Source: Octopus vulgaris (Eukaryota). From it: a stretch of 64,000 bases of DNA. Location of the stretch: positions 193,130,001 through 193,194,000 of the forward strand of contig OX597815.1 in assembly GCA_951406725.2 (NCBI GenBank), given 5' to 3'. Below, in pieces: positions 3,707 through 56,037 of this stretch. How positions within the stretch are numbered: position 1 is the stretch's first letter; the number at the start of each line of letters is the position of its first letter. A program made the translations under genes and the position numbers. The notes beneath the pieces were generated by a model. That model ran no database searches and was not told the origin of the DNA. It saw only the letters and a list, made by a program, of their open reading frames with translations.

Positions 3707-3817
3707 ATACAAAACGAACGACCACAATACTTTGACAATAACTTGACTGCAGCAATTCTAGTCACCATTTTCTGCTTTTTTCCAACAGGCATTCCTGCTA
3801 TTATTTATGCATCTAAA
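3707..3817 (+). CDS. Dispanin/CD225-family gene copy A, first CD225 exon (IQNERPQYFDNNLTAAILVTIFCFFPTGIPAIIYASK)
   Basis: Pyrimidine tract + AG at 3705-3706, GTAAGT donor at 3818, 111 nt, phase 0/0. The hydrophobic segment with FCxxPxG..AIIYA is typical of CD225. A paralogous exon lies at 37647. Window bases 1-130 match the intron that follows the Pro-rich exon in copies B and C, so the upstream exons of A lie just left of the window. Confidence 0.9.
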
Positions 3818-4422
3818 GTAAGTAAAATACGAACATTTCTTACAAGAAATCTTATTCATTTCCATACCTTTTATCCAGTCGCGGCTGTGTGATAAGAGGT
3901 TTGCTTCCCAACCACATGGTTCTGGGTTCAGTCCTAGAGCAAGTGCTTTCTGCAATAGTCTGGTATTGATCAAAGCCTTGTGAGTGGATTAAGCACATGG
4001 AAAGTTAAAGAATCCTGTTATACACATATACATACATACATACATACACACACACACACACACACACACACACACACACACACATATATATATATATATA
4101 TATATATATATATATATATATATATATATATATATATATATAACACATACATACATACATACGTACACACACACACGCGTATATATATATATATATATAT
4201 ATATATATATACATACATTCTATTTTCAAATTCTTCCAGGTCAAATTTGGCTTTGATCGTTTAGTGATAGATAAAATAAGTACTTGTTGGATACTGGGGT
4301 TGATGCCCATTCCTCCAAAATTGCTGGCCTTGTACTAAAATTAGAAACCAATATATTTGCGGTTGTTGAGTTTTATTAGCGTGCTTTAAATACAATCAAA
4401 TTCTTGTCTTTCTATTTTCTAG

Positions 4423-4641
4423 GCAAATACAAGGATCCGAAATGGAGATATAGCAGGTGCAAACGAAGCTAAAGCGACTGCAAGACGATTTATCATAGTA
4501 TCAATTCTCGTTGGTTCACTCTGTTTTATTGCTATAATAGTTCTGTCATTTGTTCTAAGTAGACTAGGATATGCTTATCATGGAAGTGGTTCTGCCAATA
4601 ACCATGACTTAATATCCGAAAAGATTTTAGATTCAGATTAA
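4423..4641 (+). CDS. Dispanin/CD225 gene copy A, terminal coding exon (ANTRIRNGDIAGANEAKATARRFIIVSILVGSLCFIAIIVLSFVL...DSD*)
   Basis: ttctAG acceptor at 4421-4422, in frame with the previous exon. GDxxGA motif followed by a transmembrane helix; TAA at 4639-4641. Paralogous to 42437. Confidence 0.9.
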   Translation, partial: ANTRIRNGDIAGANEAKATARRFIIVSILVGSLCFIAIIVLSFVLSRLGYAYHGSGSANNHDLISEKILDSD

Positions 4642-5130
4642 ATGAAGTATGTTCTTTTTCATATGCTTCATCAATTATTATCACAAAATATTCTCAGTAA
4701 GAGATGTTTAAATATATTGAGAACTTCAGTTAATAAATGGTATGTTTGGTAATAAATGACATAATGTTAAATATTGAACAATGATATATTCTGATCGGTG
4801 ATCTCTATGGTTTCAGCCTGATGGCAAGAACTAATAAAACACTAAAACTATGAGAGTATAGAGATATTCCTGCACCTATTGTACCATTCCTTCTCTCCAG
4901 TTGAATCACCCACGAAAGCAATGGGTGATGTTGTTGCATTTTGGTTTTATTTTAATAATCTTTGGCATTATCGCAGGAACGGTCAAACTTTAAAATCATT
5001 TTATAAAAATATATGTTAAATAAAGCAAATTTTTAAACTCTTTCCTATTTTTTTCAAAATGATGCCTTAAAACCCGATATTCATATGAGTGTTTAACATT
5101 TACATGAGCGTTCAACTCTGTTTAGCATTT

Positions 5131-5531
5131 ACTGGCAATATAACCCAGCGTTGCTCAGGCTTGTTGTCTTTTCGACCCTTTAGAATTGGAATTTTTGAAA
5201 AGTAAAAGTTTTGCATTATGTAGCTTGTTATTCTCTTTAAGTGAACATTTTTCTGGTTGAAATACACCGAAAAATGACGACACAGCAGTCAAAAAATCGT
5301 AAAAAATAGGGATTTTCATAGAAAAAAAACACCTTTTTGATGTAAATAAGTTTTGTTCTTAACATGGTCCGATTTGAATTTTATCTTCTACGGAATGAAG
5401 AGCAAGCCTTCTTCTATCATACTCTCAATTTTGGTTAACTTGCGCCGCAGGGTCTCGGAGGAGATAGTGTTAGTTGAAGGCTACCAAACATGCCATACAC
5501 AGACAGCTTCAGCTTTATATATAGAGAGATT
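5131..5531 (-). mobile_element. Non-autonomous Helentron/HINE-like element
   Basis: The minus strand starts ATCTCTCTATATATAAAGC..GTCTGTG and ends with hairpin CCTGAGCAACGCTGGG...CCAGT. Same terminal structure as 14030-14412; absent from the paralogous 3' region of copy B. Confidence 0.55.
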
Positions 5532-5716
5532 AGACACTACATAAGCAAAAGATAAGCCATTATATACATATTTTGACAAACACGTCAACACAAAATGTTA
5601 GATAATGGTAGATAGAAACAGCTAAAACTGAAAACTAAATTCAGATATTGATTACAAATGTAGAGAAATATTTCTGGTAGCTTTCATTCATAAATATTAG
5701 GGTTAATATTGGTTTA

Positions 5717-52969: not shown

Positions 52970-52979
52970 ATGGAAGACA
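52970..52979 (+). CDS. Dispanin gene copy C, 10-nt start exon (ATG GAA GAC A|gtaagt)
   Basis: Same ATG-10nt-GTAAGT phase-1 arrangement as 13074, in paralogous context. Confidence 0.7.
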
Positions 52980-55343
52980 GTAAGTAATATTAATGGATTT
53001 TCGTGAGTATATAATAATACATTTTCCTGAGGATATCCTTATGAATTTTCGTAAGTTCTCGCTACATATCCGCTTCTATAACTCTTTTGTAAACACATCC
53101 GACGATTCGCTCGATAAGGTGTTAACAAAATTCCAATTTACCGTTCTATCAGTTCACGGGTGTTAATTAAAGACTAGTATATACGCAGGACTAACTGAAC
53201 CCAACTCAAAAAAATATTCTTGAGTTCTGATCAAAATATATACTTTTTTTTTAAATGCGTAGATATGCGTACATATGTATGAATTCAAATATTTCTCCTA
53301 CTATGCATGTGCGTGTGCGCGTGAGGGTGTGTTGATATGCTAGACAGAGAAAAGGAAAACGTTAGACGTAAAAAACAAAACTATATATATATATATATAT
53401 ATATATATATATATATATATATATATATATATATATATATATAAATATATATATACTTTATAATAGACAGTGTCATTGATAATCTTTCAGTAATATGCAC
53501 ACACCATTAATACATAATGAAATAATTTTTGAACAAAACAAATATATCTATCTATCTATCTATCTATCTATCTATCTATCTATCTATCTATCTATCTATC
53601 TATCTATCTATCTATCTATCTATCTATCTATCTATCTATATATCTATCTATCCATCCATGTATCTATCTATCTATCTATCTATCTATCTATCTATCTATC
53701 TATCTATCTATCTATCTATCTATCTATCTATCTATCTATCTATCTATCTATCTATCTATCTATCTATATATATATATATATATATATATATATATATATA
53801 TATGCAGGCACGCACACATGGACATATGTATGCATGTGTGTGTATGTATGTATGTATATTTTTTATTTTATTTTAATTTTTTATTTTATCTAGTTTCAGC
53901 TCACGAGCTGTGGCCATATATATATATATAAATATATATATATATACATATATATACATACATATATATACATACATATATATACATATATATATATATA
54001 TATATATATATATATATATATATATATATATATATATATATATATGTATGTATATATATATATATATATATATATATATATATATATATATATATATATA
54101 TATATATATATATGGAGGGGGGAAGTCTGTGTGTATGTGTATATACAAATCCATAAACAAAAATGACCGCAAAACAATTAGACATACTTCTGTATCTAAG
54201 TATAAATAACATATAAGATATATAACTAATTGACCTCTCACCATAATGACTTCATACCTTAGAACCAATATAATAGTTTAGGAAGAAAATGTTAACACAT
54301 ATGAATATGTAACACACTTACTCGCATTAACAAAAGGATGTGAAGATGTGGGTTCGACTCCCACGCGGATAGGGAATCCTTCTTTTTTCTGTCGAGGGCT
54401 TATATGCCCCTTTATTAGACTATTTTCCTTAGTCATTGCACGGTGATCGCCATAAGCTATAAGCTTGTATAAAAAATACTATTATTATTTTTTACAGGTT
54501 TGTAAAAACGGCACCGTATAAAAGACCCTTCGCACCGAAAGTATATATATATATATATATATATATATATATATATATATACTCTTTCGTCACAACTTTC
54601 TCTCACTCTTTCTTCTGTTGGCCAGCTTGCTTAGCCAGCGGGGTGGCGTCATTTGAAAGGCTAAAACCAATGCGAAGTGCATTGTGACCAGCGATGTGTA
54701 GCAACATCTGATAGCCTGGTCGGTCATAGTGATATATATATATATATATATATATATATATATATATATATATATATATATACTTTTATATATATGTATA
54801 AAATTAACAAAATGAGATAACCCTGTATATATATATATATATATATATATGTATATGTATATAAACACACACAACAAAAAGAATTGGGAACCTCAGGTAT
54901 CTCACAAGTATCCAGCATCATGATCAGCTGTATCATTTGTAAAATAGCTGCTTTTTAGAAAAATTTCCAATGAGAAATGTAAAGTTGGACAATTTACTTC
55001 CGACATTATAAATGTTTTTAAATTATAAAAACTGTTTTGTCCTCATCCTAAAACAGTAAATAAAATAGTGAAAAAATAAAATGATAGTAGCTGGATTAAC
55101 TCCAGCTTTGTGATTTCTGAAAGGGAGATTGCTGTTAGTTGTATCATACTCCTAATGAGTTCTTCGTAACCTGGCAGCAGAAATTCTGTTTTTATTCTAT
55201 GTTCTTCAGCAATTAAAGAACCGCAGGAGTGAAACCATAAAATTATCTAAATATCCTGCTCTTTCGTTAATGTAATAGTGATAATATGAATTGATTTTGT
55301 TTTATTATAAGCAATTTTCACAAGAATATTAAAGTCACCAATC

Positions 55344-55577
55344 CGTTTCTTTACTACCCACAAGGGGCTAAACACAGAGAGGACAAACAAGGACAGACAA
55401 AGGGATTAAGTCGATTACATCGACCCCAGTGCGTAACTGGTACTTATTTAATCGACCCCGAAAGGATGAAAGGCAAAGTCGACCTCGGCGGAATTTGAAC
55501 TCAGAACGTAGCGGCAGACGAAATACAGCTACGCGTTTCGCCCGGCGTGCTATCGGTTCTGCCAGCTCGCTGCCCTT
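55344..55577 (-). mobile_element. Family 1 SINE with 16-bp TSD ATTAAAGTCACCAATC, about 100 nt upstream of the copy C exon 2 acceptor
   Basis: Direct repeat at 55328-55343 and 55578-55593; empty site in copy B at about 31945. Confidence 0.9.
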
Positions 55578-55681
55578 ATTAAAGTCACCAATCAGCATAT
55601 AACAATTGTTGATTAATTATATTTATGAGGAATGTACACTTTGAAATATCGCTTTTGGAATCTAATTTCTTTTTTTTACAG

Positions 55682-56037
55682 ATAACAAAACAACTGAGGA
55701 ACCGGAAAATGATCCACCAGAATACTCTGAAAAACCTGGAAACACACCTGCTTTTGCGAATCCTTTGGCTTCTGAACATCCCGGAGAATCTGGATATCCA
55801 CCGCCACCAGCATATGAACCACCACCCGGATATGAACCACAACCCGGATATCCACCACAATTCGGATTTCCACCACCACACGGATATCCACCACAACCCG
55901 GATATCCACCACAATTTGGATATCCACCACAACCTGGATATCAACCACAACTCGGATATGCACCACAACCCGGATACCCGTCACAACCACCAATTGTGCA
56001 ACAAGCACTGAATCAACAACACCAAAACCCTGTTATT
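55682..56037 (+). CDS. Dispanin gene copy C, Pro-rich exon (in frame; ...PPEY...PPAY...(PGYPPQ)n...NPVI)
   Basis: AG at 55680-55681 and GTAAGC at 56038; 356 nt = 2 + 118 codons, open throughout. The CD225 exons of C were not found in the window. Confidence 0.85.

Follow-up and report, generated by a model that had tools for sequence, protein, structure and literature searches.

PRRT1-like dispanin (CD225) genes with fast protein divergence lie in a tandem cluster in Octopus vulgaris

Three dispanin (CD225) paralogues, here called A, B and C, lie in tandem on the + strand of the 64-kb window (the whole stretch of Octopus vulgaris DNA analysed in this study), and their predicted exons have GT-AG ends and matched phases (Table 1). 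The first-pass annotation had read the locus as three same-strand CD225 paralogues, which the exons on the + strand and their Pfam CD225 matches bear out. Only gene B is whole within the window; the four-exon layout proposed for all three was complete in B and was seen as halves only in A and C. Because positions 4-110 resemble the second intron of B and of C, gene A runs on leftward, and its exons 1-2 are placed outside the window on that side. The record P0002 equals C exons 1-2 letter for letter and then runs into a CD225 domain, which puts C exons 3-4 to the right of the window. The array thus passes both window edges, as had been claimed.

Table 1. Features of the dispanin cluster in the window.
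Feature	Position	Strand	Evidence
A intron 2, 5' part	4..110	+	80% identity to B intron 2 (32650-32760), 76% to C (56186-56295)
A exon 3: CD225 first half, re-entrant hydrophobic helices, single Cys	3707..3817	+	GT-AG, phase 0-0
A exon 4: encodes a loop carrying G-D and GxxxG, then the transmembrane helix and the C-tail up to the stop	4423..4641	+	GT-AG; motif scan
A 3' UTR and downstream spacer	4642..7376	+	Block homology to B 42626-47112; 6 blocks, 77-84% identity
Upstream region of B, interrupted by repeats	10788..13073	+	72% over 296 nt to C upstream 52183-52969
Putative B coding exon 1 (10 nt, ATG)	13074..13083	+	Placed by its homology with C exon 1
B exon 2: Pro-rich, 2 PPxY, GYPPQP-type repeats, polyP/polyQ	32042..32501	+	GT-AG
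Partial tandem exon 3 copy, own acceptor, stop soon after	37526..37595	+	53/67 nt identical to A exon 3; 44/67 to B exon 3
B exon 3: CD225 first half	37647..37757	+	GT-AG; Pfam CD225 E 6e-6 alone
B exon 4: encodes a diverged loop lacking both G-D and GxxxG, then the transmembrane helix and the stop	42437..42586	+	GT-AG
C coding exon 1 (10 nt, ATG)	52970..52979	+	Agrees with the first residues of CAI9718712.1 (O. vulgaris)
C exon 2: Pro-rich, 3 PPxY	55682..56037	+	Exons 1+2 equal CAI9718712.1 residues 1-122

Collinear non-coding homology of about 70-85% identity was found between the units, around different TE insertions, in agreement with what had been noticed at first. The exon-1 regions of B and C aligned with a score of 296; 300 shuffles reached at most 208, and 110 comparison segments from elsewhere at most 202. 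Unequal crossing-over together with birth-and-death turnover is the likely route by which the cluster expanded.

Over the exons inside the window, A and C are identical letter for letter to public O. vulgaris proteins, A exon 3 to CAI9718710.1. The public Octopus records are CAI9718710.1, CAI9718712.1, CAI9718723.1 and CAI9718725.1, together with XP_029658084.1, XP_029655251.1, XP_036367721.1 and XP_029658026.1. There are at least two further paralogues in O. vulgaris and four in O. bimaculoides, and the reading frames of A, C and the 3' part of B are open in O. sinensis. Some of the public records are misnamed 'annexin A7-like', which presumably stems from the GYPPQP repeats. An annexin A7 identity was rejected, since P0002 and P0011 gave CD225 only and no annexin repeats.

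CD225 (PF04505) was found in all eight full-length Octopus records at 43-71 bits, against a curated cut-off of 27.1. In single-exon searches, four of the seven pieces matched, including A exon 3 (E 1.7e-8) and A exon 4 (E 6.1e-6), and both Pro-rich exons and the partial exon had no match. B exon 4 gave E 0.1 alone and E 4.7e-11 within the O. sinensis record. A Kyte-Doolittle scan placed two hydrophobic segments near the C-terminus behind a long N-terminus in three of three proteins. The exon 3/4 boundary of A and B falls in the loop between these segments, and a conserved splice site in this loop is a dispanin feature (PMC3282796). The coding layout has four exons, with about 120-157 residues ahead of CD225. 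Studies have shown that DSPC and DSPD1 combine an extra N-terminal exon with the conserved loop splice site, that IFITMs have two exons, and that the dispanins of invertebrates resemble DSPC/D (PMC3282796).

The sole PDB sequence match was PRRT1 (9zks_M, E 2.1e-11); this position as best match partly reflects how few dispanins have been solved. In the AlphaFold2 model, the N-terminal 120 residues are disordered and are followed by short helices at 135-145 and 147-165 and a long helix at 169-210. These predicted helices match the re-entrant H1a-H1b plus transmembrane H2 topology solved for PRRT1 (PMC13262616). With the predicted fold, Foldseek gave no match at E<=0.001 among the 95 listed, and the VIA fold search returned generic helical hairpins only (best Z 9.2 at 8% identity). 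In the arrangement of their exons, in their motifs and in their closest solved relative, the octopus sequences are PRRT1-like rather than IFITM-like. The earlier label had been 'IFITM/PRRT-like'; the antiviral motifs of IFITMs are mostly missing.

The A-X6-A loop motif and the C-x-x-P-x-G core were each kept in nine of nine octopus rows. G-D, Cys-Cys and an N-terminal Asp are conserved, not invariant, dispanin features: G-D is present in A only (C has G-N and B has W-N), A, B and C each carry a single Cys and no CC pair, and the N-terminal Asp is present in A and C and absent from B. The 0-layer Arg position, set by the offset from GxxxG and by the PRRT1 alignment, is Asn in nine of nine octopus rows. 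GxxxG occurs in A, not in B or C (3/9 octopus rows), and PPxY occurs in A, B and C, in 6/9 octopus rows and in 4/6 other-mollusc rows. For the segment ahead of the Cys, where IFITMs carry an amphipathic helix, the hydrophobic moment was 0.32-0.40 as computed for the three octopus proteins A, B and C only.

These motifs bear on the idea that the copies are a convergent IFITM-like antiviral set, whose members would be induced, stiffen endosomal membranes, block virus fusion and diversify under pathogen pressure. The tandem array does resemble the vertebrate IFITM locus, GxxxG is kept in A, and PPxY is shared with IFITM3. However, the 0-layer Arg that IFITM3 requires (PMC11730294) is replaced, GxxxG, the IFITM oligomerisation motif (PMC7665892), is missing from B and C, one Cys stands in place of CC, and both exon layout and best match are PRRT1-like. 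No NF-kB site was found near B or C exon 1, and ISRE-like cores there numbered 1 and 2 in 2 kb, no excess over the window-wide 0.23/kb. We believe that such an antiviral set is unlikely. The fusion-restricting innate-immune role suggested by the first-pass annotation gained no direct support.

Between paralogues, dN was close to dS (0.6-1.0; 0.98 for A versus B exons 3-4 and 0.83 for B versus C exon 2). This indicates that protein divergence is fast, without demonstrated positive selection; the array had been called apparently diversifying, and the fast divergence held. On the coding sequences, such values are high for housekeeping trafficking proteins and could reflect relaxed constraint as well as an arms race. 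In exon 4, dN reached 0.45 over 34 codons and 0.68 over 12 loop codons, against a K of 0.22 in the flanking non-coding sequence (Fisher p 0.003), and of the six amino acids that distinguish C of O. vulgaris from C of O. sinensis, four lie within residues 174-194. Both observations favour the antiviral idea. However, the synonymous sites of exon 4 have diverged just as much (dS 0.57; N versus S p 0.81), an excess of dN over dS is not demonstrated, and the non-coding divergence between units (K about 0.22) comes from blocks chosen by BLAST, which biases it toward conserved sequence. A reading of positive selection from an exon less conserved than its intron was not adopted, because synonymous divergence is raised as well. 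Octopuses might, starting from a PRRT1-like dispanin, have evolved an IFITM-equivalent antiviral array of their own, in which the loop/transmembrane exon would be under diversifying selection, N-terminal tails and CD225 modules would shuffle between copies through the GYPPQP repeats, and enveloped-virus fusion would be blocked without the Arg, Cys-Cys or GxxxG; we consider this quite unlikely. The idea of tail/CD225 shuffling is based on an A/B chimeric record in O. sinensis.

The near equality of dN and dS would also be expected if the copies mostly duplicated one another's role and drifted because selection on them had relaxed, with B as a young pseudogene. As assembled, B exon 2 has 460 nt and is one base short at a CCA/CAA boundary near 32467, so its junction with exon 3 is out of frame. 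B also lacks the Asp, G-D and GxxxG. The partial exon 3 copy beside it (37526-37595), which had no Pfam CD225 match, is likely dead. No protein record for B exon 2 was found (0/7 candidates passed), in a weak search that missed gene C as well, and none of the public Octopus records listed above is a complete B. Against this stand a single lesion in B, in a triplet run, at a dS of 0.3-0.5, splice sites that are all intact, and the cores common to all nine octopus rows. The O. sinensis record XP_036367721.1 keeps the 3' half of B exon 2 in frame, and exons 3-4 are in frame in that species too, with two amino acid differences over exons 3-4 between it and O. vulgaris. Ten runs with guessed RNA status held 0.63-0.69 of the words of 31960-32620, for which the exon alone predicts 0.68; runs with a share of 0.07 were disregarded. 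In our opinion, redundancy with a dying B is rather improbable.

Since PRRT1 is the best solved relative, the copies might instead serve octopus glutamate receptors as auxiliary subunits in neurons, a part that PRRT1/SynDIG4 plays for AMPA receptors. Two reports state that PRRT1 binds GluA1 via its CD225 domain (bioRxiv 10.64898/2026.06.24.734257; PMC13262616), and PMC9282427 expects molluscs to have lineage-specific AMPA-receptor regulators. In contrast, fast divergence would be unlike conserved synaptic subunits, most AMPA-receptor auxiliary functions are placed in vertebrate neofunctionalisation (PMC7653359), and the rank of PRRT1 owes something to the scarcity of solved dispanins. We regard a receptor role as unlikely.

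In this study, we lean, by a little more than even chance, toward a tandem PRRT1-like dispanin cluster whose proteins would assist or sort other membrane proteins, as small accessory factors of the endosome-plasma membrane system. If they behave like their vertebrate relatives, WW ligases of the NEDD4 type would be drawn to the PPxY motifs of the cytosolic tail and the conserved Cys would carry palmitate. Divergence in the loop and the transmembrane helix would then direct the individual copies to distinct partner proteins or compartments. Studies have shown that the PPxY of IFITM3 binds NEDD4 WW domains (PMC13344045). Because PPxY is present in IFITM3 and in other molluscs too, the motif cannot tell the competing functions apart. 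For A, B and C, membership of the CD225 family, an origin in tandem and fast divergence are all borne out.

Names were obtained for 20 of the 150 representative-search matches and follow-ups. One tree comprised 30 of 156 rows, chosen as those with octopus or mollusc names and their near neighbours; the large tree was run in quick mode on 88 columns and was poorly resolved, and both were without a named vertebrate sequence. The 12 octopus rows split from the 6 other-mollusc rows (94/87; 100% of 200 bootstrap trees). In the free tree, one bacterial and one other row fell among the octopus rows (61/83; p-AU 0.31), so the octopus rows need not be strictly monophyletic. Because the octopus copies stand apart from the six named gastropod and bivalve sequences, their expansion is likely lineage-specific relative to those sampled. 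An independent cephalopod expansion had been proposed; the separation from the sampled gastropods and bivalves supports a lineage-specific origin, with Octopus species as the only cephalopods sampled.

Multi-copy dispanin sets are ordinary in molluscs, and on present evidence the octopus cluster is an ordinary, likely lineage-specific expansion. PMC9334734, PMC9282427, PMC3282796 and PMC5620054 report multi-copy dispanins in Aplysia (10 genes/14 transcripts), amphioxus (12) and sea urchin (9), and a lophotrochozoan expansion is already published there. Our search found no publication on an octopus dispanin cluster; the supplements of cephalopod genome papers, outside that search, may list the family. 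A compact, fast-diverging cluster with intact sister-species orthologues is a workable test set for invertebrate dispanin function, and suits the question of an origin of antiviral or receptor-auxiliary roles in lineages other than vertebrates. Annotation corrections also follow, for the 'annexin A7-like' labels, the likely missing gene B and the chimeric model.

Compared with known systems, the octopus genes resemble PRRT1/SynDIG4 (dispanin D, 9zks chain M) in the long Pro-rich N-terminus, the extra N-terminal exon and CD225, and in the predicted re-entrant helix pair with one transmembrane helix. However, PRRT1 is a single conserved vertebrate gene with Cys-Cys and Arg, whereas the octopus set is tandem and fast-diverging, with Phe-Cys and Asn at the corresponding places in A, B and C. 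Similarly, the IFITM1-3 cluster (dispanin A) is tandem and lineage-specific and shares CD225, the loop splice site and an N-terminal PPxY. In contrast, IFITMs have two exons, a short N-terminus, Cys-Cys, the 0-layer Arg, GxxxG and interferon induction, and the octopus genes have four coding exons and mostly lack the IFITM motifs. Like other invertebrate multi-copy dispanins, the octopus set comprises many paralogues and no clear vertebrate orthologue, but its copies lie apart from the sampled gastropods and bivalves and likely arose in a separate expansion.

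Self-comparison of the window resolved three collinear units, all on the + strand, amid many SINE, LINE and microsatellite repeats, with the dispanin (CD225) paralogues A, B and C. Exons 3 and 4 match Pfam CD225, which confirms the family assigned in the first-pass annotation, and the curated cut-off was passed by 8 of 8 full Octopus records. GT-AG ends were found in every intron of the A, B and C exons delimited in the window. The four-exon layout proposed for all three paralogues is whole in B, while A and C are cut by the window edges. The array does run beyond both edges, as had been claimed: C goes on to the right, and A starts beyond the left edge, since positions 4-110 match the second intron of both B and C. 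The 10-nt ATG exon pattern is weak by itself (10 such matches within the window); the exon-1 regions of B and C are homologous, with a score of 296 versus maxima of 208 in 300 shuffles and 202 in 110 other windows. The first intron of B spans ~19.0 kb, and that of C ~2.7 kb. A partial additional exon 3 with its own acceptor lies at 37526-37595; it is nearer to exon 3 of A (53/67 nt) than to that of B (44/67), which suggests mosaic exchange among the units.

Exons of the three dispanin genes and repeats around them
Feature	Position	Strand	Basis or description
A exon 3	3707-3817	+	exon ends, GT-AG introns
A exon 4	4423-4641	+	exon ends, GT-AG introns
B exon 1	13074-13083	+	10-nt ATG exon; homology to C exon 1
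B exon 2	32042-32501	+	exon ends, GT-AG introns
B exon 3	37647-37757	+	exon ends, GT-AG introns
B exon 4	42437-42586	+	exon ends, GT-AG introns
C exon 1	52970-52979	+	10-nt ATG exon
C exon 2	55682-56037	+	exon ends, GT-AG introns
LINE, B intron 1	15695-18814	-	open 1039-aa endonuclease-reverse transcriptase frame
LINE, C intron 2	58965-60395	-	second reverse-transcriptase LINE; frame in broken pieces
Outer inverted repeat, B intron 1	15344-15622 / 26903-27189		arms 95% identical
Inner inverted repeat, B intron 1	20933-23514 / 24489-26906		nested; arms microsatellite-rich, spacer about 1 kb
SINE pieces, B intron 3	39392-41270		~10 head-to-tail, ~184 bp; higher-order period near 546 bp
Inverted duplication, between A and B	9611-10183 / 11197-11770		574 bp, 99% identity
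Direct tandem duplication, A intron 2	2177-2743 / 2713-3282		570 bp, 99% identity

The LINE in B intron 1 is apparently young, and the nested inverted repeats there resemble a foldback element with the LINE inserted in its left arm. The tandem duplication in A intron 2 is either recent or an assembly artefact. By eye, we take degenerate stretches at ~8400-8940 and 49950-50900 to be putative DNA-transposase remnants.

Exon 2 of B has 460 nt and is thus one base short of the exon 3 frame, with a break at the boundary of the CCA and CAA runs near 32467 that was overlooked in the first-pass annotation. The O. sinensis protein record XP_036367721.1 carries the 3' half of this exon with the frame kept across polyP and polyQ, and differs from exons 3-4 of B at 2 amino acids; the break is therefore likely to be an assembly slip or recent repeat slippage. 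The same record is chimeric, with residues 1-56 from gene A and 53 onward from gene B beginning at exon 2. The junction, a 4-residue overlap inside a GYPP repeat, falls near ~32293, and there is no AG at the corresponding point of B in the window. Either an error in gene modelling or genuine recombination could account for this chimera. There is no more than a hint of B expression: 10 of the 24 listed runs, RNA by the tool's guess, contain a share of 0.63-0.69 of the words sampled, close to the 0.68 that exon 2 by itself should give, and an eleventh such run contains no sampled B words.

Public annotation already includes genes A and C, which are identical over the exons present in the window to O. 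vulgaris CAI9718710.1 and CAI9718712.1, respectively. Two further O. vulgaris dispanins, CAI9718723.1 and CAI9718725.1, are on a contig of the same size (215.6 Mb), and the closeness of accession numbers suggests that five or more genes form a single cluster. One 207.9-Mb contig carries four O. sinensis records, and one 192.5-Mb contig three from O. bimaculoides; two additional O. bimaculoides records, one a 53-residue fragment, have no contig given.

A CD225-region tree of 30 rows included 12 from octopus and 6 from Saccostrea, Magallana, Solemya, Bulinus and Lottia. One branch parts these two groups (support 94/87), and counting them alone the split recurs in all 200 bootstrap trees (100%). 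That the octopus rows are strictly monophyletic was neither shown nor rejected (p-AU 0.31). An expansion particular to this lineage, as against the gastropods and bivalves sampled, gains from this split; for the proposed cephalopod scope, the cephalopods sampled were Octopus alone, with no squid, cuttlefish or nautilus protein among the 20 relatives given names. A, B and C each pair one-to-one between O. vulgaris and O. sinensis; the O. bimaculoides rows are unpaired with them, where 50% clustering of the library may hide close orthologues. Multi-copy invertebrate dispanins are already known: the available texts report 10 genes (PMC9334734) and 14 transcripts (PMC9282427) in Aplysia, 12 amphioxus and 9 sea urchin dispanins (PMC3282796), and lophotrochozoan expansions "even greater than vertebrates" (PMC5620054). 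No published work on the present cluster was found in a search of mainly open-access main texts.

The proteins diverge fast. The dN/dS was 0.98 for A versus B exons 3-4 (86 ungapped codons, the last 15 doubtfully aligned) and 0.83 for B versus C exon 2 (118 codons; 0.59 in the first 44). Exon 4 identity (60/90 nt) is below that of the adjoining intron end (99/110) and 3' UTR (217/270). Over exon 4 codons 1-34, dN (0.45, p 0.003) exceeds the K of 0.22 in pooled non-coding blocks (1478/1832 identical), but so does dS (0.57, p 0.02). Both are thus raised, with no difference between N and S sites (p 0.81), and the fast divergence of the proteins, in line with the diversifying array proposed, is compatible with positive selection, with relaxed constraint or with an exon 4 that is older and converted. 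We consider neutral redundancy of the copies quite unlikely.

Family features for the motif check were drawn from the available part of PMC3282796. The octopus genes retain the splice site in the loop as well as A-X6-A; G-D is found in A alone among the three, and each has a single Cys. Studies have shown, in the portions available, that IFITM3 antiviral activity requires the 0-layer Arg (PMC11730294) and GxxxG (PMC7665892). Among nine octopus sequences including A, B and C, the Arg position is Asn in 9/9, and GxxxG occurs in 3/9 (A alone of our three). Features on which this activity depends are thus mostly missing at the sequence level, and in a consensus-based motif scan ISRE and NF-kB cores were not enriched near exon 1. 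We therefore regard IFITM-like antiviral restriction as unlikely.

The PPxY of IFITM3 binds NEDD4, according to the accessible text of PMC13344045, and A, B and C carry 1, 2 and 3 PPxY motifs. By analogy with PRRT1, PRRT2 and IFITM3, we somewhat favor a role in which a disordered cytosolic Pro-rich tail bearing these motifs would be anchored by a re-entrant hairpin, likely palmitoylated, and one transmembrane helix. CD225 would bind partner membrane proteins, NEDD4-type ligases would direct sorting or turnover, and the traffic of the partners would be tuned, with duplicated copies differing in partner or compartment. A role as glutamate-receptor auxiliary subunits (bioRxiv 10.64898/2026.06.24.734257 and PMC7653359) seems to us quite unlikely.

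PRRT1 (9zks_M) was the only PDB sequence match (E 2.1e-11). In the AlphaFold2 model of C, the N-terminal 120 residues are at low confidence and are followed by two helices (135-145, 147-165) and then by a long one at 169-210 (pLDDT ~85-96). These predicted helices would fit the re-entrant H1a-H1b plus H2 layout described for PRRT1 in the available text of PMC13262616. In the accessible part of PMC3282796, DSPC/DSPD1 have an additional N-terminal exon, as the octopus genes do, whereas IFITMs have two exons.
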